From: Escherichia coli O157 typing phage 15
Sequence record: KP869113
DNA: 64,000 bases
Strand: one strand, 5' to 3'
Each line of letters starts with the position of its first letter. Position 1 is the stretch's first letter. Positions 42-10,971 of the stretch are shown one piece after another. The notes beneath the pieces were generated by a model. It made no database searches, was not told the DNA's origin, and saw only the letters and a program-made list of their open reading frames with translations. Made by a program: the position numbers and the translations under genes.

Positions 42-117
42 TGGGGTGACCTACGGGATTTGAACCCGTATAGACCATGTTCACAGCATGGGTCATTACC
101 ATTTATGATAAGGCCAC
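42..117 (-). tRNA. tRNA-His (anticodon GTG), CCA encoded
   Basis: T-arm acggg/atttgaa/cccgt on plus strand; anticodon stem ccatg/catgg with loop ttcacag (codon CAC); acceptor 7 bp. Confidence 0.65.
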
Positions 118-148
118 ATTTAAGGACTCTCGTAAGAATCCTTAGAAG

Positions 149-224
149 TGGCAGCGGCATAAGGATTTGAACCTTAATAGGACAGCTTCAGAGACTGCTG
201 CATTGCCAGTTATGCTATACCGCT
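149..224 (-). tRNA. tRNA-Gln (anticodon CTG), CCA encoded
   Basis: T-arm taagg/atttgaa/cctta; anticodon loop ttcagag (codon CAG); acceptor agcggta/tgccgct. Confidence 0.6.
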
Positions 225-229
225 AAATT

Positions 230-309
230 TGGTACTCCATATCGGATTCGAACCGATACATAACACAGATTTTAAGTCTGGCCTCTCTGCCAATTGGAGT
301 AATGGAGCA
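230..309 (-). tRNA. tRNA with anticodon TAA (Leu-type anticodon, short variable arm)
   Basis: T-arm atcgg/attcgaa/ccgat; anticodon stem caga/tctg with loop ttttaag (codon TTA); CCA encoded; D-arm short. Confidence 0.5.
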
Positions 310-310
310 T

Positions 311-386
311 TGGCGGGGGATGTTGGAATTGAACCAACTTCTTCGATTTCAAAGACCGAGGTTTTAACCTTGTAAACTAATCCCCT
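311..386 (-). tRNA. tRNA-Gln (anticodon TTG), CCA encoded
   Basis: T-arm gttgg/aattgaa/ccaac; anticodon loop ttcaaag (codon CAA); D-arm gttt/aaac. Confidence 0.55.
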
Positions 387-394
387 TTAAATCT

Positions 395-721
395 TTACTT
401 TCTTAGTGGATGAATAAAGAATGCCAACATAACTCTTTCCCTTGAAAATGCTCTTTCTTCTGGGACAACACTTTTAAGTTTCCACCCAACATAAATTCTC
501 CAGTAAAATTGTTTACCAAAGATTTTGATTGACGGCACAAAAGCGAATAATCCCCAAGCATTACTGTTCCACATTAGGAGATAACCAGTCTGATTATCTT
601 CAGGGTTAGAACTTACGTTGATATTACCTTTCCACTTAGTAACATCTTTTACATCTCTTCCTAATACATGGTAAGAGAAGTTATAAGCTTTGTTTCTCCA
701 GAGCCATCCAACTCTCTGCAT
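395..721 (-). CDS. hypothetical protein (N-terminus uncertain, abuts assembly gap)
   Basis: 108-aa ORF immediately 5' of the tRNA block; Trp/Tyr-rich; the N run starts 9 nt upstream of the listed start. Confidence 0.3.
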   Translation of the reverse strand: MQRVGWLWRNKAYNFSYHVLGRDVKDVTKWKGNINVSSNPEDNQTGYLLMWNSNAWGLFAFVPSIKIFGKQFYWRIYVGWKLKSVVPEERAFSRERVMLAFFIHPLRK

Positions 722-730
722 GTAGACACC

Positions 731-1450
731 NNNNNNNNNNNNNNNNNNNNNNNNNNNNNNNNNNNNNNNNNNNNNNNNNNNNNNNNNNNNNNNNNNNNNN
801 NNNNNNNNNNNNNNNNNNNNNNNNNNNNNNNNNNNNNNNNNNNNNNNNNNNNNNNNNNNNNNNNNNNNNNNNNNNNNNNNNNNNNNNNNNNNNNNNNNNN
901 NNNNNNNNNNNNNNNNNNNNNNNNNNNNNNNNNNNNNNNNNNNNNNNNNNNNNNNNNNNNNNNNNNNNNNNNNNNNNNNNNNNNNNNNNNNNNNNNNNNN
1001 NNNNNNNNNNNNNNNNNNNNNNNNNNNNNNNNNNNNNNNNNNNNNNNNNNNNNNNNNNNNNNNNNNNNNNNNNNNNNNNNNNNNNNNNNNNNNNNNNNNN
1101 NNNNNNNNNNNNNNNNNNNNNNNNNNNNNNNNNNNNNNNNNNNNNNNNNNNNNNNNNNNNNNNNNNNNNNNNNNNNNNNNNNNNNNNNNNNNNNNNNNNN
1201 NNNNNNNNNNNNNNNNNNNNNNNNNNNNNNNNNNNNNNNNNNNNNNNNNNNNNNNNNNNNNNNNNNNNNNNNNNNNNNNNNNNNNNNNNNNNNNNNNNNN
1301 NNNNNNNNNNNNNNNNNNNNNNNNNNNNNNNNNNNNNNNNNNNNNNNNNNNNNNNNNNNNNNNNNNNNNNNNNNNNNNNNNNNNNNNNNNNNNNNNNNNN
1401 NNNNNNNNNNNNNNNNNNNNNNNNNNNNNNNNNNNNNNNNNNNNNNNNNN
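731..1450. other. assembly gap (720 N)
   Basis: run of n; the X-filled ORFs across it are artefacts. Confidence 0.99.
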
Positions 1451-1520
1451 CTCACTAAAGGACTTGAACCTTTTTCTTCATCTTGTAAGGGTGATGTTTT
1501 ACCATATAAACTAAGCGAGT
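1451..1520 (-). tRNA. tRNA-Val (anticodon TAC), 3' end lost in gap
   Basis: T-arm aaagg/acttgaa/ccttt at 1457-1473; anticodon loop ttgtaag (codon GTA); D-arm gttt/aaac; acceptor agcgagt. Confidence 0.5.
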
Positions 1521-1616
1521 ATGAAAGAGGTCTGAAGTTGTGCCGCTAACTCAACTTCGTGGAATTTGTTACGGTCTTCAGTTGACTCAAAGCGGTCTTT
1601 CACTTGACCTCTGAAT

Positions 1617-1692
1617 TGGTGCTCCCACAAGGACTCGAACCCTGATAAGTTGCTTACAAGGCAACCGTAATAACCAATTATACGATAGGAGC
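1617..1692 (-). tRNA. tRNA-Thr (anticodon TGT), CCA encoded
   Basis: T-arm caagg/actcgaa/ccctg; anticodon stem gttgc/gcaac, loop ttacaag (codon ACA). Confidence 0.65.
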
Positions 1693-1699
1693 ATTAATT

Positions 1700-1774
1700 T
1701 GGAGCATCCAGAGGGAATCGAACCCTCAACCTCAGTTTGGAAGACTGTAATTTTCCCGTTTAAACTATGGATGC
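1700..1774 (-). tRNA. tRNA-Gly (anticodon TCC), CCA encoded
   Basis: T-arm gaggg/aatcgaa/ccctc; anticodon loop ttggaag (codon GGA); acceptor gcatcca/tggatgc perfect. Confidence 0.65.
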
Positions 1775-1780
1775 ACTAAT

Positions 1781-1856
1781 TGGTGGAGTCACTGAGAATT
1801 GAACTCAGTTCCCAAGTTTGCAAAACTCGAATTTTAACCATATAAACTATGACCCC
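1781..1856 (-). tRNA. tRNA-Ala (anticodon TGC), CCA encoded
   Basis: T-arm ctgag/aattgaa/ctcag; anticodon loop ttgcaaa (codon GCA). Confidence 0.6.
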
Positions 1857-1862
1857 ATTGTT

Positions 1863-1938
1863 TGGTACAGGTGGAGGGAATTGAACCCATCGTCTTACTG
1901 ATTAAGAGTCAGCCGCATAACCATTTTGCTACACCTGC
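1863..1938 (-). tRNA. tRNA-Lys (anticodon CTT), CCA encoded
   Basis: T-loop aattgaa flanked by ggg/ccc; anticodon stem actga/tcagc, loop ttaagag (codon AAG). Confidence 0.55.
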
Positions 1939-1945
1939 ATTAATT

Positions 1946-2022
1946 TGGTACACCTAGAGAGATTCGAACTCACACTGAGCAGATTCTAAGTCTGCTGCCT
2001 CTACCAGTTGGGCTATAGGTGC
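1946..2022 (-). tRNA. tRNA with anticodon TAG (Leu-type anticodon, short variable arm)
   Basis: T-loop attcgaa; perfect anticodon stem gcaga/tctgc with loop ttctaag (codon CTA); D-arm gcct/gggc; 77 nt including CCA. Confidence 0.55.
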
Positions 2023-2103
2023 ATTAAATCTTTTTAGAGAACTTCTAAGAACCTGAGCAACAAGGTTCCACAACAAGCGACTAATAACCTTAGAAGCCCT
2101 CTA

Positions 2104-2126
2104 AAAAGACCTAAATAGGTCTTTGC
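2104..2126 (-). terminator. rho-independent terminator-like hairpin
   Basis: aaagacc-taaatag-ggtcttt perfect 7-bp stem; on the minus strand the stem is followed by a T run. Confidence 0.4.
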
Positions 2127-2280
2127 ATAGTCTTGTTTAATCCGGTGACTAGAACCTTTGGAGAGCTTGATATTATCTCTTCTCCGTGACACCTACTAGG
2201 TGTTTTATCAGTGTGTACAACAATACACGCGGTATACCAAAGCAACATCCGAATGAAGCTTGGCTTTAAATCTTATTAGG

Positions 2281-2368
2281 CGGTAAGTAAAGGAGTCGAA
2301 CCCTCACCGTATCTCTACAGTGGCAACTGTTTTCAAGACAGTTTGGCTACCATTAGCCGCTACCTACC
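2281..2368 (-). tRNA. tRNA-Ser (anticodon TGA), class II long variable arm, no CCA
   Basis: T-loop agtcgaa; anticodon stem actgt/acagt with loop tttcaag (codon TCA); 88 nt; acceptor ggtaggt/acttacc. Confidence 0.6.
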
Positions 2369-2381
2369 CCTAATAAGACTG

Positions 2382-2786
2382 CTAAATACTTAACAGTCCT
2401 GCATGAACTTTCCTATGACAGTTTGAGCAAAGCACAACACACTTACGAACTTCACGCTTAATAGTTCCCCTAGAGTAAGTCTTAAGATTGCTTGGAGCAA
2501 AATCTTTCTCTTTAGGGTCTAAGTGATGAAAATCTAAAGCTACTGGCTCGGATTCACCACATATTCTGCATTTGCAAAACTTTTTATATCTACTAAGGAA
2601 CTCTCTGTTTCTCTTTTTGTCATATTTTGCTCTAACTTTCCTTTTTGCTTTATAAGTAGGGTCTTCTTTGTATCTCTTTGCTGAGTACTTAGCTTTACAA
2701 TCTTTGCAAGCAGACTGATAGCCATTCCCTCTTTTATGAAAGCAACTTAAAGGCTTCTCTTGAGAACATTTTCTACAAAGTTTCAT
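2382..2786 (-). CDS. HNH homing endonuclease
   Basis: 134-aa ORF; Cys-rich zinc-binding N-terminus and C-terminal DFHHLDP...CVVLCSNCHRKVH HNH motif; sits between tRNA genes. Confidence 0.75.
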   Translation of the reverse strand: MKLCRKCSQEKPLSCFHKRGNGYQSACKDCKAKYSAKRYKEDPTYKAKRKVRAKYDKKRNREFLSRYKKFCKCRICGESEPVALDFHHLDPKEKDFAPSNLKTYSRGTIKREVRKCVVLCSNCHRKVHAGLLSI

Positions 2787-2800
2787 ACAAGCACCTTTTC

Positions 2801-2871
2801 TGGCAGGGGTGTAGAGATTCGAACTCTAATCAAGAATTTTGGAGACTCTATTGCTGCCATAGCTCACCCCT
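2801..2871 (-). tRNA. tRNA-Trp (anticodon CCA), CCA encoded, short D-arm
   Basis: T-arm tagag/attcgaa/ctcta; anticodon loop tttggag (codon TGG); acceptor aggggtg/cacccct perfect. Confidence 0.55.
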
Positions 2872-3019
2872 ATTAAAACTATAATTCGAAGCTTACCGTA
2901 TTATCTCAACACTGTAAAGCCCCTTCTCAGATTATTTACATGTTCTGGAAAACATGAGATACAGACCACCTCCCTACAGGAAGACCCGCTTAGGTCGTCT
3001 AAGTAATCTGCTAACTAAT

Positions 3020-3096
3020 TGGCACACCCTACAGGATTCGAACCTGTAACTAACGATTTAGAAGACCGTTGCTCTATCCAATTGAACTAAGGGTGC
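3020..3096 (-). tRNA. tRNA-Arg (anticodon TCT), CCA encoded
   Basis: T-arm acagg/attcgaa/cctgt; anticodon loop ttagaag (codon AGA). Confidence 0.65.
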
Positions 3097-3361
3097 ATTA
3101 ACATTTTAAAGGGTACTCATTGCATTTAAGCCAAGCCCCATAAGGGATACCCTTTAGAATGTTGCCCACCTTATTAATCATACCGTGGGCTAGTACGCCA
3201 AATTCTTTGATGAGGGATTGGAAGACCTCACTGGTGTTTAGCCTATCAAGCTACTGCCAGAAAAACATTGTCGTTTGCATTTATTTTAAATTTGCAAAAT
3301 AGACGCTACGCAACGAAAACTAAGGTTACTATAAAGTAGTCACATCTCAATGTCAACAACT

Positions 3362-3437
3362 TTATTGAAATTGGTACTGGTAGGTGGAATCGAACCACCG
3401 ATGTTCCCTTATCAGGGGAGTGTTATAACCTTCTTAA
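3362..3437 (-). tRNA. tRNA-Ile (anticodon GAT), CCA encoded
   Basis: T-arm ggtgg/aatcgaa/ccacc; anticodon loop ttatcag (codon ATC). Confidence 0.6.
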
Positions 3438-3438
3438 C

Positions 3439-3515
3439 TATACCAGCTTGGAGGTTCAGATGGGAATCGAACCCACATTCATAGGGCTTATGAGACCCTT
3501 GCATTACCTTATCTG
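3439..3515 (-). tRNA. tRNA-Met (anticodon CAT), CCA encoded
   Basis: T-loop aatcgaa; anticodon stem agggc/accct, loop ttatgag (codon ATG); acceptor ggttcag/ctgaacc perfect. Confidence 0.6.
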
Positions 3516-3603
3516 CGACTGAACCAGAATAAGTACCCTAGTTAGAGAAACTGTTGAGTGGGTGTTTCCAGCCGCGCAGGTGTTTCTTAGTTAAGGGTGA
3601 ATT

Positions 3604-3679
3604 TGGTAGAAGTGGAGGGATTCGAACCCATCGCCTGTCAGATTAAAAGTCTGCCGCATCACCATTCTGCTACACTTCC
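3604..3679 (-). tRNA. tRNA-Lys (anticodon TTT), CCA encoded
   Basis: T-arm almost identical to the Lys-CTT gene; anticodon loop ttaaaag (codon AAA). Confidence 0.55.
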
Positions 3680-3684
3680 ATTAA

Positions 3685-3836
3685 ATTATCTTTGTAGATA
3701 AGCTACCCAGACTTGCTTAAGGTCTGTAGCGATGTGCCTTTTTGGGTTTAAATCTAGAATTTACCCTTTCACCCTTTGTGGTCGCATACTCACAGGTAAG
3801 CTTAATAACTTATCTACAAAGATAATTACCAGACCG
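3685..3836. repeat. perfect 18-bp inverted repeat (attatctttgtagataag / cttatctacaaagataat) enclosing about 116 nt
   Basis: read directly from sequence; arms at 3685-3702 and 3819-3836. Confidence 0.8.
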
Positions 3837-3964
3837 TTGTTTATCATCTTAAGTGCTACCATTACACCAACTCGACATCTGCCGAGTGAAGGAATCGAAC
3901 CTTCGCCTTTTCTTTACCGGAGAAATAGATTGTTTAAGTTTTGCTGTAAACGGTCTTCTGTAAA
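3837..3964 (-). ncRNA. structured RNA, family copy 1 (closing helix agaccgtt/aacggtct) with embedded tRNA-like T-arm
   Basis: conserved 5' box ttaccagacc and 3' box ttgctgtaaacggtcttctg; inside it gaagg/aatcgaa/ccttc T-arm plus gtg-taatggtag-cac D-arm-like hairpin, but no pairable acceptor 5' strand. Confidence 0.45.
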
Positions 3965-3971
3965 TTTGTTG

Positions 3972-4046
3972 AGCCAGACCAAGTTTTAAATTTTTCAAAA
4001 TTAAATTGGCTTGAAATTTTAAATAACTTGCTGTATTTGGTCTTCT
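3972..4046 (-). ncRNA. structured RNA, family copy 2 (closing helix agaccaa/ttggtct)
   Basis: same boxes (gccagaccaag ... ttgctgtatttggtcttctg); compensatory base changes in the helix relative to copy 1. Confidence 0.4.
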
Positions 4047-4106
4047 GCTCCTTTAAAGAATACTCGTAAGAACCCTTTAAGGGAGGGGCTAAATAGCCCT
4101 CTCAAA

Positions 4107-4184
4107 ATTGGCGGTTACGAAGGGATTTGAACCCTCATCATCTCCCGTGACAGGGGAGTATTTTAACCAAATTAAACTACATAA
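4107..4184 (-). tRNA. tRNA-Asp (anticodon GTC), CCA encoded
   Basis: T-loop atttgaa; perfect anticodon stem ctccc/gggag, loop gtgacag (codon GAC). Confidence 0.65.
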
Positions 4185-4189
4185 CCTTT

Positions 4190-4277
4190 ATTGGTGTGCC
4201 GTGTAGGAGTCGAACCTACCGAGTCTCAATGACAAGGGATTTACAGTCCCCACCGCTACCATCTACGGGATAACGAC
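4190..4277 (-). tRNA. tRNA-Tyr (anticodon GTA), class II long variable arm, CCA encoded
   Basis: T-arm gtagg/agtcgaa/cctac; anticodon stem ggga/tccc, loop tttacag (codon TAC); 88 nt. Confidence 0.6.
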
Positions 4278-4346
4278 ACATTTAATTTCTATTCAGGCTA
4301 AGGACTTGTACCTTACAAATCGGTGAGCAATCGCTTCTCTCCTAAA

Positions 4347-4423
4347 TTTGGCGGTTAGTCAGGGATTCGAACCCTGTGCCATTCGCTTAACAGGCGACCG
4401 CACATACCTTATGTGCTTCCTAA
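4347..4423 (-). tRNA. tRNA-Asn (anticodon GTT), CCA encoded
   Basis: T-arm caggg/attcgaa/ccctg; anticodon loop ttaacag (codon AAC). Confidence 0.6.
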
Positions 4424-4433
4424 CCATGTTTAG

Positions 4434-4503
4434 TATTACCAGACCGTATATTTCAATTTTTTCCGCTAAAAATTTAATAAATATTGCTGTAAACGGTCTT
4501 CTG
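4434..4503 (-). ncRNA. structured RNA, family copy 3 (closing helix agaccgt/acggtct, AT-rich loop)
   Basis: ttaccagaccgt ... ttgctgtaaacggtcttctg; no tRNA-like insert. Confidence 0.4.
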
Positions 4504-4509
4504 TAAATT

Positions 4510-4586
4510 TGGAGGCGGGTGCAGGAGTCGAACCTGCCGATACCATGCTAATGAGACATGTGAGACGCCCTTTCTCTATACCCGCA
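4510..4586 (-). tRNA. second CAT-anticodon tRNA (Met, fMet or Ile-lysidine type), CCA encoded
   Basis: T-arm gcagg/agtcgaa/cctgc; anticodon stem catgc/acatg, loop taatgag (codon ATG). Confidence 0.55.
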
Positions 4587-4605
4587 ATTCTTAATGACCA
4601 GACCA

Positions 4606-4672
4606 AATATCTTCTTTGTCCGATTAACTTTCAGATGAGTAGATTAAGTTTGCTGTAATTGGTCTTCTGTCA
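4606..4672 (-). ncRNA. structured RNA, family copy 4 (closing helix agaccaa/ttggtct)
   Basis: gaccagaccaaat ... ttgctgtaattggtcttctg; covaries with copies 1 and 3. Confidence 0.4.
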
Positions 4673-4677
4673 AAACT

Positions 4678-4755
4678 GGCGTTCCAGAAGGGATTTGAAC
4701 CCTCAAATATCCACTTTGAAAGAGTGGTGACTTTACCATTTTGTCTACTGGAACA
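4678..4755 (-). tRNA. tRNA-Glu (anticodon TTC), CCA encoded
   Basis: T-loop atttgaa; perfect anticodon stem ccact/agtgg, loop ttgaaag (codon GAA); acceptor gttccag/ctggaac perfect. Confidence 0.65.
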
Positions 4756-4762
4756 TTAATTT

Positions 4763-4842
4763 GGTCTCCGTTGAAGGATTTGAACCCTCGACCCCTTGCT
4801 CCCAAAGCAAGTGCTGCTAAACCAGACTGAGCTAAACGGAGA
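4763..4842 (-). tRNA. tRNA-Pro (anticodon TGG), CCA encoded
   Basis: T-loop atttgaa; perfect anticodon stem cttgc/gcaag, loop tcccaaa (codon CCA); acceptor ctccgtt/aacggag perfect. Confidence 0.65.
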
Positions 4843-5006
4843 TAAACTTTTCAAACTTTATGTAACCACTTTAACATTATTTTTTAGTGGTTGTCAAGAA
4901 CTTTTTTAAAATATTTTTCAGCATCTTAGAAAAGCTCTCATTTCGTTTCTATGTAGAACATATTAAAGGGTATTAAACACATTGTCAATACCCTTTTTAA
5001 AACTTT

Positions 5007-6422
5007 TTACCAGATATAACGGTCAATCATTACTGCTTTGAGCATTACACTGATTGGGTCAAACTTCTCACCACCAAGCAGAGCTTTTAAAGTGGCTGGA
5101 GAGAACCCTGATACCATTGCTACACCGTTATCCTTAACAGATACTTCGCAAGTACCATTACGGTTTGCTAAGTACCAGAATACCAGTTGTGGCATCTCAT
5201 ATCCAGCTTTTTTGTACTTACTCTGAATTGCTTCAAAGTTTGTACGACCGTTAGCTCCATCAACCTGATTAAACTCCATATCGGAGAAGATGATAAGCTT
5301 ACTTGGCATATCTTTCTGAGTCAAGTTGTTTCTTTTACCTGTTTCAAGAATGCGGTCAAAAGCTGCTTGTAAGTTAGTTGAGCCATATTCAACGTGTCGC
5401 ATCACCTGACGATGACGGTTTCGTAAATCACCACTCAGTTCGATGAAGTGAGGGTTTGTTGAATAAACCATCAACTCATTCTTAAAGCAACCTGTATTGC
5501 GTTCTGCTACATACAAGGCAAGTGATACACCAATATCCAGAGCAGTAATGGAGCCAAAATTCACCCAAGACATTGAACTTGATACATCAGACATACACAA
5601 GATGTTTTCACCTTCTGCCATCCAGTTTGGTAGTGCTTTCCACTGCTCATTAGCAACATCTGCATTACCATACTTGACAGATTTAATCACATCGTATGGG
5701 TAAACAGCACCAGCGTTAATCTTAGTCTCACCTTTTGATAAGGACTCGATGTAAGCTTTGTAACGCTCTCCATCTTTACGGTTAAACAGTTTTTGGTAAC
5801 GTGCAGCAGCAAGTGAAGGAATCTTACTGTAGTCAATCTTACCAAACTCATTAGCAGAGATTTTTTGCTCAACTGTATCAGATAGTGCAGACAACAGTGT
5901 GCGGTACTCTTTCTCACTCAAGTTGGCAAACTTGCAGAAACGTTTTACAAACTGCTTATGACGTGGTTTGACTCGTGGTAACCACTTAGCCGCCAAACCT
6001 GCTGTTGCAGGGTCTAGTAATGCTGCTTCTAAATGTTTGAAGGCATCTGTCTCGAAACGAGTACCTACGAAGATTTTGAAGTCATCAAAACGACCAAGTT
6101 CTGCAATCTTATCCATAATGCGAAGAACCTGCGTAGACTCTAAAACTTTGTCTTCAATCGCTTGAAGTAAAACAGCTCTGAAGGCTTTACGCTCACCCAT
6201 ACCTTCTCGTACATCTCGCATATGCAGTAAAATACGAACTGCAACATCAACATCCTCACGCAAAGCTTTGTAGAACAGGTCTGGTAAGATTTCTACATTG
6301 CTACGGCTTGAACCAGCAGCTTTGTAAAAGTCTACAAGAGCAGACATTGATGAAGTATGGTTTACAGCACCATTTTCAGTTCGACCTGCATGAAGGTGCG
6401 CATGTTTAAATAACTCGCTCAT
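5007..6422 (-). CDS. vWA (MIDAS) domain protein with N-terminal alpha-helical domain; Ro60/TROVE-like or DUF2828-like architecture
   Basis: 471-aa ORF; C-terminal ILCMSDVSSSMSW (DxSxS MIDAS) ... LIIFSDMEF typical of vWA fold; first gene downstream of the tRNA/ncRNA block. Confidence 0.6.
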   Translation of the reverse strand: MSELFKHAHLHAGRTENGAVNHTSSMSALVDFYKAAGSSRSNVEILPDLFYKALREDVDVAVRILLHMRDVREGMGERKAFRAVLLQAIEDKVLESTQVLRIMDKIAELGRFDDFKIFVGTRFETDAFKHLEAALLDPATAGLAAKWLPRVKPRHKQFVKRFCKFANLSEKEYRTLLSALSDTVEQKISANEFGKIDYSKIPSLAAARYQKLFNRKDGERYKAYIESLSKGETKINAGAVYPYDVIKSVKYGNADVANEQWKALPNWMAEGENILCMSDVSSSMSWVNFGSITALDIGVSLALYVAERNTGCFKNELMVYSTNPHFIELSGDLRNRHRQVMRHVEYGSTNLQAAFDRILETGKRNNLTQKDMPSKLIIFSDMEFNQVDGANGRTNFEAIQSKYKKAGYEMPQLVFWYLANRNGTCEVSVKDNGVAMVSGFSPATLKALLGGEKFDPISVMLKAVMIDRYIW

Positions 6423-10678: not shown

Positions 10679-10971
10679 TGAGTAAAGTACAGGTTGTTTT
10701 CCCTATTTGTGACTTCTCACTAGAGCGTGAACTTGACCTGTACGAAGAAATTACTGACGAAATTATCTGGTCTGTTGTAGAAGAGGCTATCAAGAAGCTG
10801 TATGGTGGCCTCTTAAATCCATCAAGTAAGAAGTTAAGCACTAAGCAAGTAGCTGACCCATATGTTTCATACGATGCCTACAACAAGCCTTTTGAAAATA
10901 CCTGCTTTGACCTTATGGTAGGTAATAACAAAGTCAACTATTTCTTCGTCAGAGAGTTTAACGATGAGTAA
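10678..10971 (+). CDS. hypothetical protein
   Basis: 97-aa ORF. Confidence 0.45.
   Translation: MSKVQVVFPICDFSLERELDLYEEITDEIIWSVVEEAIKKLYGGLLNPSSKKLSTKQVADPYVSYDAYNKPFENTCFDLMVGNNKVNYFFVREFNDE

Follow-up and report, generated by a model that had tools for sequence, protein, structure and literature searches.

What kind of genetic element is represented by the four similar repeats dispersed among the tRNA genes of Escherichia coli O157 typing phage 15? The sequence considered here (64,000 nucleotides of record KP869113, hereafter the window) belongs to a Felix O1-like phage (Felixounavirus), and on its minus strand 22 tRNA genes occupy positions 42–4841, with the repeats located among them. 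The surrounding region (3600–4900) is 99% identical to that of Escherichia phage vB_EcoM_LMP34 and 96–97% identical to those of many Salmonella and E. coli phages. An initial annotation, made from the letters of the sequence, described the repeats as a four-copy family of hairpin RNAs with a compensatory pattern of changes in the closing helix. According to the computational analysis presented here, they are structured candidate small-RNA genes, probably for Y-like partners of a Ro60-like protein encoded directly upstream of the tRNA cluster. Ro60–Y RNA particles constitute a conserved and poorly understood system of RNA surveillance, and Ro60 systems of phages are, to our knowledge, so far known only for recognisable TROVE proteins.

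Common architecture of the repeats

Four copies sharing CCAGACC on the 5′ side and TTGCTGTAnnnGGTCTTCTG on the 3′ side of the plus strand, as reported initially, are really present, with about 0.5 expected by chance. The 3′ box TGCTGTAnnnGGTCTTCTG has exactly four matches on the plus strand (3942–3960, 4029–4047, 4485–4503 and 4651–4669), the mean number in shuffled sequences being 0.52 and none of 100 shuffles reaching five. CCAGACC is found 30–60 nucleotides (nt) upstream of three of these matches (0 expected); for the fourth, with CCAGACC at 3829–3835, the distance is about 110 nt. The same four-copy families (D4 and D8) were recovered by a repeat finder. All four loci of the initial annotation were retained, while the starts it gave for copies 1 (3837) and 4 (4606) had to be moved, as both lay past the 5′ box. 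The corrected extents are as follows (R1 and R2 are covariance models described below):

3826–3963, minus strand: element 1, candidate Y-like RNA with a tRNA-mimic module (YrlA-like), found by folding, RNAalifold, R2 and covariation
3971–4050, minus strand: element 2, short candidate Y-like RNA, found by motif counts, folding, covariation and R1 (E = 4e-5)
4436–4506, minus strand: element 3, short candidate Y-like RNA between tRNA-Met and tRNA-Asn (R1, E = 2.3e-7)
4595–4672, minus strand: element 4, short candidate Y-like RNA between tRNA-Glu and tRNA-Met (R1, E = 8.3e-6)

Folded on the minus strand, each copy forms a 4-base-pair (bp) outer helix, an asymmetric internal loop in which AGA (5′ side) faces G (3′ side), and a 7-bp inner helix, after which UACAGCAA is left single-stranded. 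The asymmetric loop had been foreseen by the initial annotation, the outer helix had been overlooked. In elements 1–4 the latter is formed, respectively, by UUAC/GUAA, GAGC/GCUC, UUAC/GUAA and UGAC/GUCA. The compensatory change in the closing (inner) helix is reproduced in full, since copies 1 and 3 contain AGACCGT/ACGGTCT and copies 2 and 4 AGACCAA/TTGGTCT, which correspond to AGACCGU/ACGGUCU and AGACCAA/UUGGUCU in RNA. In single-sequence folds of all four copies UACAGCAA remains unpaired directly after the 5′ arm of the inner helix. It had previously been taken merely for a box and turned out to be conserved more widely across the family than any other feature. In element 2, which combines outer GAGC/GCUC with inner AGACCAA/UUGGUCU, this motif occupies positions 4028–4035 and the loop contains an AU-rich hairpin.

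Covariation was estimated for Felixounavirus sequences gathered only by the invariant words AGAAGACC, TNCAGCAA and GGTCTG, i.e. with no selection for pairing, and was counted at positions that these words do not fix. This set includes 73 unique sequences with 31 distinct stem contexts, in all of which the outer helix is paired (100%), so that its pairing is preserved throughout these relatives. Three of its four base pairs covary (UA/GC; UA/GC/AU/GU; AU/GC/GU), and so do the two inner-helix pairs that vary (GC/AU and UA/AU). As position nine of the stem is mostly unpaired, the inner helix was limited to 7 bp. The covariation score was reached by none of 500 shuffles, and sliding of the 3′ partner decreased pairing from 93% to 22–45%. 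A double change was registered even inside one orthologous element, where UUAC/GUAA of element 3 is replaced by UUGC/GCAA in relatives. The proposal that a selected RNA structure rather than chance repetition stands behind these sequences is thus supported by covarying helices. Since the G-U pairs of the helices become C-A mismatches on the opposite strand, the RNA belongs to the minus strand only, which is the strand of the tRNAs suggested from the beginning and is also the one that gives tRNA-like T and D arms in element 1. No minus-strand terminator-like sites were found at the four elements, the loops being 30–100 nt long with no U run after the stem. A reading of the boxes as promoters was rejected, since the single weak match, over element 3 (TTTACA-16-AATATT, 9/12), is absent from the other copies.

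A scan of the window with Rfam 15 gave only noise on the elements (e.g. Dicty_Class_I with 17–21 bits against a gathering threshold of 41.5), in line with the initial impression that no named family has this signature.

A permuted tRNA-like module in element 1

Element 1 differs from the other three in its loop of about 100 nt, which escaped attention in the initial annotation and is occupied by a tRNA-like module. On the minus strand its parts follow in the order V arm, T arm, closed acceptor-like stem, U-G and D arm. The positions within the element are:

3826–3829 with 3960–3963, minus strand: outer helix, with bulged G at 3830 and bulged AGA at 3957–3959
3831–3837 with 3950–3956, minus strand: inner helix
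3941–3948, minus strand: UACAGCAA
3909–3925, minus strand: V arm
3888–3904, minus strand: T arm
3870–3887, minus strand: closed acceptor-like stem
3853–3867, minus strand: D arm

The V arm is a small hairpin UUUCU-CCGGUAA-AGAAA. It is followed by a canonical T arm (GGUUCGAUUCC), GAAGG-UUCGAUU-CCUUC, with the T loop UUCGAUU. The acceptor-like stem consists of 7 bp (ACUCGGC/GUCGAGU) capped by AGAU, and the D arm, GUGU-AAUGGUA-GCAC, has GG in its loop and is preceded by U8. This is the V–T–acceptor-like stem–D (V-T-AS-D) order of bacterial YrlA Y RNAs. Both the T and the D arm are invariant across 11 distinct Felixounavirus variants, while the capped stem exists in them in three unrelated versions, all of which pair (ACUCGGC/GUCGAGU, ACACG/CGUGU and ACCCUUC/GAAGGGU). 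RNAalifold applied to the same variants independently predicted all six helices of the element.

ARAGORN made no tRNA call at element 1, and the tRNA model of Rfam scored 22 bits at 3887–3937, below its cut-off of 29. CCA is missing from the module, a loop of 4–8 nt closes its acceptor, and the “anticodon” loop CCGGUAA carries C33 instead of U33 and is reduced to 6 nt in close relatives. By these properties a working tRNA, including a permuted one, is ruled out. The module is present in only one of the four copies.

A neighbouring protein with the fold of Ro60

The gene that borders the tRNA cluster had not been taken into account either:

5007–6422, minus strand: gene of a Ro60-like protein, 471 amino acids (Pfam, AlphaFold model, Foldseek)

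This open reading frame (ORF) lies directly upstream of the cluster on the same strand as the elements. Pfam assigns DUF2828 and DUF7788 to its product, which consists of a helical-repeat ring and a vWA domain with a DxSxS MIDAS motif invariant in 50 homologues. The AlphaFold model (predicted local distance difference test score, pLDDT, 89) matches Ro60 proteins over the full length, and in the Foldseek search the 11 top-ranking hits belong to Xenopus and human Ro60, Deinococcus Rsr and Ro60 of Thermus phage phiLo (E = 1e-8 to 3e-6). The family is large: more than 2,500 homologues were found in a protein search, and nearly 600 IMG/VR loci were confirmed.

With 97% identity the protein is an ortholog of bas63_0130 (gp130) of phage Bas63 (JohannRWettstein). 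A preprint reports that gp130 of Bas63 resembles Ro60 and counters the ppl defence system, and speculates that Y RNAs may be hidden among the adjacent annotated “tRNA genes” (10.1101/2024.10.10.617714). In the Bas63 annotation the four elements either are not marked at all or coincide in part with small hypothetical ORFs. Short ORFs covering element 1 were considered as genes, but their length varies from 0 to 107 amino acids among 32 distinct relatives with none consistently conserved, which we do not regard as decisive.

A wider family with a stem and a CAGCAA-type motif

Relatives of the elements were searched for in 75 distant loci encoding DUF2828 proteins that are 38–47% identical to the protein of the window (765 kb, both strands). 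The pattern T arm–hairpin–D arm occurred there 14 times, always on the strand of the gene (one match in shuffled sequences). One match is an adjacent tRNA pair, while the other 13 are not tRNAs, and all 13 are situated within a closing helix. In 12 of the 13, CAGCA(A/G/U) or CCGCAA stands two or three bases past the 5′ arm of this helix, neither the helix nor a motif of this type being part of the search pattern. A scan for CAGCAA after a 7-mer with a downstream complement gave 107 matches on the strand of the gene, 30 on the opposite strand and 18 in shuffled sequences. Conservation also extended to positions that had not been selected for, namely A-A ahead of the stem, A-G as its first two bases, U two bases upstream of CAGCAA and G following the 3′ arm. 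The signature of the family is given by these features as a 7-bp stem starting with A-G and ending with C-U, then G, with N-U-W-CAGCAA after the 5′ arm, and is complemented by position close to the DUF2828 gene on the strand of this gene.

For covariance model R1, 19 short elements were taken from distant phages (DUF2828 at most 47% identical), and no Felixounavirus sequence was included. Its top three hits in the whole window are elements 3, 4 and 2. Element 1 was recognised by its 5′ part only (E = 0.23), and the next hit in the window had E = 0.5. In the 75 distant loci R1 gave 56 hits at E ≤ 0.01. All 56 share the strand of the gene, and a median of 165 nt separates them from it (49 of 56 within 500 nt; 22 upstream and 34 downstream). 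Almost half of them (27 of 56) belong to loci without any tRNA. In 52 distinct distant members, pairing within the 7-bp stem reaches 98.9%, with covariation at six of the seven pairs. R1 has three hits in every DUF2828-positive Felixounavirus locus and no hit in three loci of Ounavirinae where DUF2828 is missing from the retrieved stretch of roughly 10 kb. Thus the family tracks the gene with the Ro60 fold, not the tRNAs.

Model R2 was derived from Felixounavirus element 1, which it scores at 168 bits. Full-length matches to it were found in distant loci, the best one in L110 (E = 1e-12) and others in L152 (three matches), L098, L104, L138, L158 and some more. Below E = 0.003 every match shares the strand of the gene, and the only hits on the opposite strand below E = 0.05 are adjacent tRNA pairs in Kolesnikvirus loci. 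In the R2-built alignment of 20 sequences from the window and distant phages 94.9% of cells are paired and 29 of 32 pairs show double changes. On all five measures the alignment surpasses each of 500 shuffles, and pairing falls to 37–40% in slid registers. A MAFFT alignment of 13 distant tRNA-like elements was too inconsistent to be annotated by hand, and R2 was used instead. Covariance-model searches of the type proposed in the initial annotation have revealed a broader family with preserved pairing, and the elements apparently belong to a large, undescribed phage RNA family residing beside the Ro60-like gene. An outer helix at a fixed register is absent from this wider family, so that the AGA/G loop and the 4-bp helix are specific for Felixounaviruses.

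Loops of distant members contain other conserved cargos (L087, L089, L092, L093 and L110; also L127, L133, L144 and L151). Among them are a recurring module GAACCUUUCUGGAGGGGAAAGCAAAAACUCGCC and branched inserts of about 160 nt, while short members often repeat AGCAA in the loop. An Rfam scan of nine distant loci at the gathering threshold detected nothing except tRNAs and a group I intron; such an intron (Rfam, 71.5 bits) is located at 10696–10922 of L101, a distant phage contig bearing DUF2828. A separate observation concerns Ounavirinae without DUF2828 in the fetched region. At the equivalent position of the minus strand they carry a tRNA-like fold of normal order (L006, about 5150–5445; L004, about 5660–6150), which closely follows a TTGACA promoter, precedes tRNA-Pro and is enclosed by a helix of 8 bp (CUUCAGAG/CUCUGAAG). 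Possibly this is a non-coding RNA of another tRNA-like kind.

Comparison with known Y RNAs

YrlA Y RNAs carry the V-T-AS-D order within a terminal stem (Chen et al. 2014, PMC4201824), and known Y RNAs lie beside their Ro60 gene (PMC4201824). The elements share with bacterial and mycobacteriophage YrlA RNAs (PMC4201824) the location near a Ro60-type gene on the same strand, the terminal stem with an adjacent conserved motif and, in element 1, the V-T-AS-D module itself, in which conservation is strongest in T and D and the acceptor-like stem is maintained only as pairing. Unlike YrlA, they are embedded in a tRNA cluster, only one copy of four has the tRNA mimic, and the expected partner is a DUF2828/DUF7788 protein which is Ro60 by fold and not by TROVE sequence. 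Salmonella YrlB and Yrl1/Yrl2 of Thermus phage phiLo (PMC12135203) resemble the shorter elements, as all of them are short, have a terminal stem and a motif but no tRNA module, and adjoin the Ro60 gene in several copies; the phiLo RNAs are, moreover, also encoded by a phage, and they bind the phage Ro60 in vitro (PMC12135203). The difference is that these RNAs have CGAA in an internal bulge and a true TROVE-family Ro60 as a partner, whereas the elements have UNCAGCAA and a putative pairing with DUF2828. Because of UNCAGCAA in place of CGAA, the non-TROVE protein and the outer helix confined to Felixounaviruses, we classify the elements as variant Y-like RNAs and not as members of YrlA.

With vertebrate Y RNAs only the general logic is similar: the paired ends form a bulged helix for protein docking and the variable loop is the effector. 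Their sequence is unrelated (GGUCCGA motif), they are transcribed by Pol III and have no tRNA-like module. The vertebrate Ro60 site, in the work of Green et al. of 1998, reportedly also has bulges on opposite strands. The tRNA cluster of phage T4 produces stable non-tRNA RNAs C and D (species 1 and 2), which are freed by tRNA processing. They are likened to the elements by genomic setting alone, as small RNAs inside a phage tRNA cluster, and we know of no DUF2828 protein encoded by T4.

Putative mode of action and alternative explanations

The following feature should be considered in relation to expression of the elements:

4868–4988, minus strand: two sigma-70-like promoter matches (consensus scan only)

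They are TTGACA-17-TAATAT at 4988–4960 and TTGACA-18-TAAAGT at 4897–4868, both between the Ro60-like gene and tRNA-Pro, in a region where the total number of promoter-like matches is not above that in shuffled sequences. Judging from their consensus, these putative promoters likely represent the start of a transcript with the tRNAs and elements 1–4. The elements lie 335–1180 nt downstream of the stop codon of the Ro60-like gene, past both promoter-like sites and at least two tRNAs, and elements 3 and 4 are separated from the flanking tRNA ends by only 2–9 nt. Based on the promoter-like sites at 4988 and 4897 and on this spacing one can assume that the elements would be transcribed from the minus strand within the tRNA-cluster transcript and probably released by processing of the flanking tRNAs. 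The stem with UACAGCAA may then serve as a docking site for the ring protein encoded by ORF 5007–6422, by analogy with Y RNAs, which bind Ro60 via the terminal stem and the adjacent conserved motif. The variable loops could act as effector modules. The tRNA mimic of element 1 might recruit or decoy tRNA-binding factors, and the resulting ribonucleoprotein (RNP) would take part in an RNA-level conflict with the host. Element 1 would then represent the tRNA-mimic type and elements 2–4 the short type comparable to YrlB or phiLo Yrl1/2.

The hairpins could instead be cis-acting processing or stability structures of the tRNA precursor (spacers for RNase III, RNase E or RNase P), having no function once cut out. 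Location between tRNAs with spacers of 2–9 nt and long stems with an internal loop agree with this, but most tRNA junctions of the same cluster manage without such elements, and neither the conserved single-stranded motif nor an elaborate covarying tRNA mimic would be expected. Since the family persists without tRNAs, as seen for the 27 of 56 distant members that track the DUF2828 gene in tRNA-free loci, this explanation is quite unlikely. Control in cis, by which the Ro60-like protein or another factor binding to the primary transcript regulates its own mRNA or the output of tRNAs, we consider unlikely as well. It profits from the same proximity to the gene, but known Y RNAs also adjoin the Ro60 gene (PMC4201824), the elements of the window are removed from the stop codon by the distance and the intervening sites given above, and four tandem paralogues with different loops and tRNA mimics in the family correspond better to effector RNAs.

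Imperfect inverted repeats around variable inserts, present in several copies, might also be functional at the DNA level as termini of miniature mobile elements, attC-type recombination sites or replication signals. The strict orientation relative to the gene (56 to 0) and the G-U pairs contradict this, and so we ascribe very little probability to it. Besides, there is no integrase or transposase gene in the neighbourhood, and the elements occupy the same positions across the sampled Felixounaviruses, among which no presence/absence polymorphism was seen. The hairpin ribozyme, the bulge-helix-bulge splicing motif and the integron attC site were rejected for differences in loop geometry and conserved bases and for the absolute strand bias. 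Just as improbable is the assumption that element 1 represents a tRNA gene in a decayed or permuted state, the others being its remnants, i.e. debris of the tRNA cluster. The weak tRNA-model hit and the tRNA-like T and D arms are in its favour, but it is contradicted by the invariance of these very arms in 11 Felixounavirus variants together with compensatory changes in the acceptor-like stem, and by the recurrence of the same permuted order, with covariation, in distant phages; the defects listed above (no CCA, capped acceptor, C33 and a 6-nt loop in relatives) would also not allow the module to work as a tRNA.

Several circumstances weigh against the role of Y-like partners. Co-location with the gene (22 members upstream, 34 downstream, median 165 nt) fits cis-acting sites equally well. 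The motif reported for Ro60 binding, GNCGAAN0-1G (CGAA), is absent from the conserved 5′ region of the elements, which has UNCAGCAA instead, and the only GGCGAAG of element 1 is at the V/T junction, with a C that varies in relatives. A sequence profile of 50 homologues of the neighbouring protein found no Ro60 chain in the PDB and Pfam gave no TROVE domain for it; no DUF2828–Ro60 link was detected at the sequence level, and only the fold agrees. Four paralogues and their close relatives provide few independent substitution events. Seeds of R1 were picked for perfect 7-bp pairing and covariance-model alignments are fitted to the model, therefore the covariation counts of the wider R1 and R2 alignments lean to structure. 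The Felixounavirus covariation counts, the strand and position statistics and the cross-detection are free of this bias. A literature search found no transcriptome of a Felix O1-like phage.

Even so, the assignment of the four repeats to Y-like partners of the Ro60-like protein is the most economical, because it combines structured RNAs on the tRNA strand, a family that tracks the Ro60-fold gene and a module of the YrlA type. We incline, with less assurance, to a broader proposition, in which a terminal stem with UNCAGCAA and interchangeable loops (tRNA mimics, single T arms and other conserved cargos) defines a class of putative obligate partners of DUF2828 proteins, i.e. a second, independently diverged Ro/Y system.

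Other features of the tRNA cluster

Between element 1 and tRNA-Lys (3684–3827, minus strand) there is a second strongly structured element with a minimum free energy of −48.3 kcal/mol (z = −5.45). Its inverted-repeat arms of 22 nt extend into a closing stem of about 24 bp, which encloses some 100 nt of branched interior. It is kept in Felixounaviruses with one compensatory change (A-U to G-C) and has no CAGCAA motif. A GC-rich hairpin (GAGGGCUAUUUAGCCCCUC) without relation to the four elements is found in the 57-nt spacer from tRNA-Asp to element 2 (4052–4108, minus strand). A sub-threshold match to permuted tmRNA (29 bits, gathering threshold 47) covers tRNA-Ile and the following spacer at 3246–3430 of the minus strand and is probably driven by the tRNA part. 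Inside the cluster the minus strand also has an ORF of 134 amino acids (2382–2786) with weak matches to HNH endonucleases (E about 0.006–0.013), and at this position relatives have an annotated HNH endonuclease. The masked run of N at 731–1450 in the cluster region corresponds in relatives to tRNA Arg-ACG, tRNA Leu-CAA and a partial ORF. A link of the repeats to tRNA-Arg through an 11-nt inverted match to its anticodon arm (repeats I16 and I17) was considered and rejected, as the match is missing from the wider family. By our own estimate this match is also near chance expectation.

Significance

The analysis offers concrete candidate RNA partners for DUF2828, a widespread phage protein family of unknown function. 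In the preprint on Bas63 Y RNAs were only guessed at among annotated tRNAs, whereas the candidates proposed here are spacers that either carry no annotation or have been wrongly marked as small ORFs. The sequence and structure signature together with the two covariance models can be used for annotation of this RNA family in phage genomes, and the natural series of “cargo” modules in the loops could reveal the targets of the RNP. If the broader proposition is true, these RNAs and the DUF2828 proteins would constitute a phage RNP that manipulates RNA metabolism of the host or its anti-phage defence.

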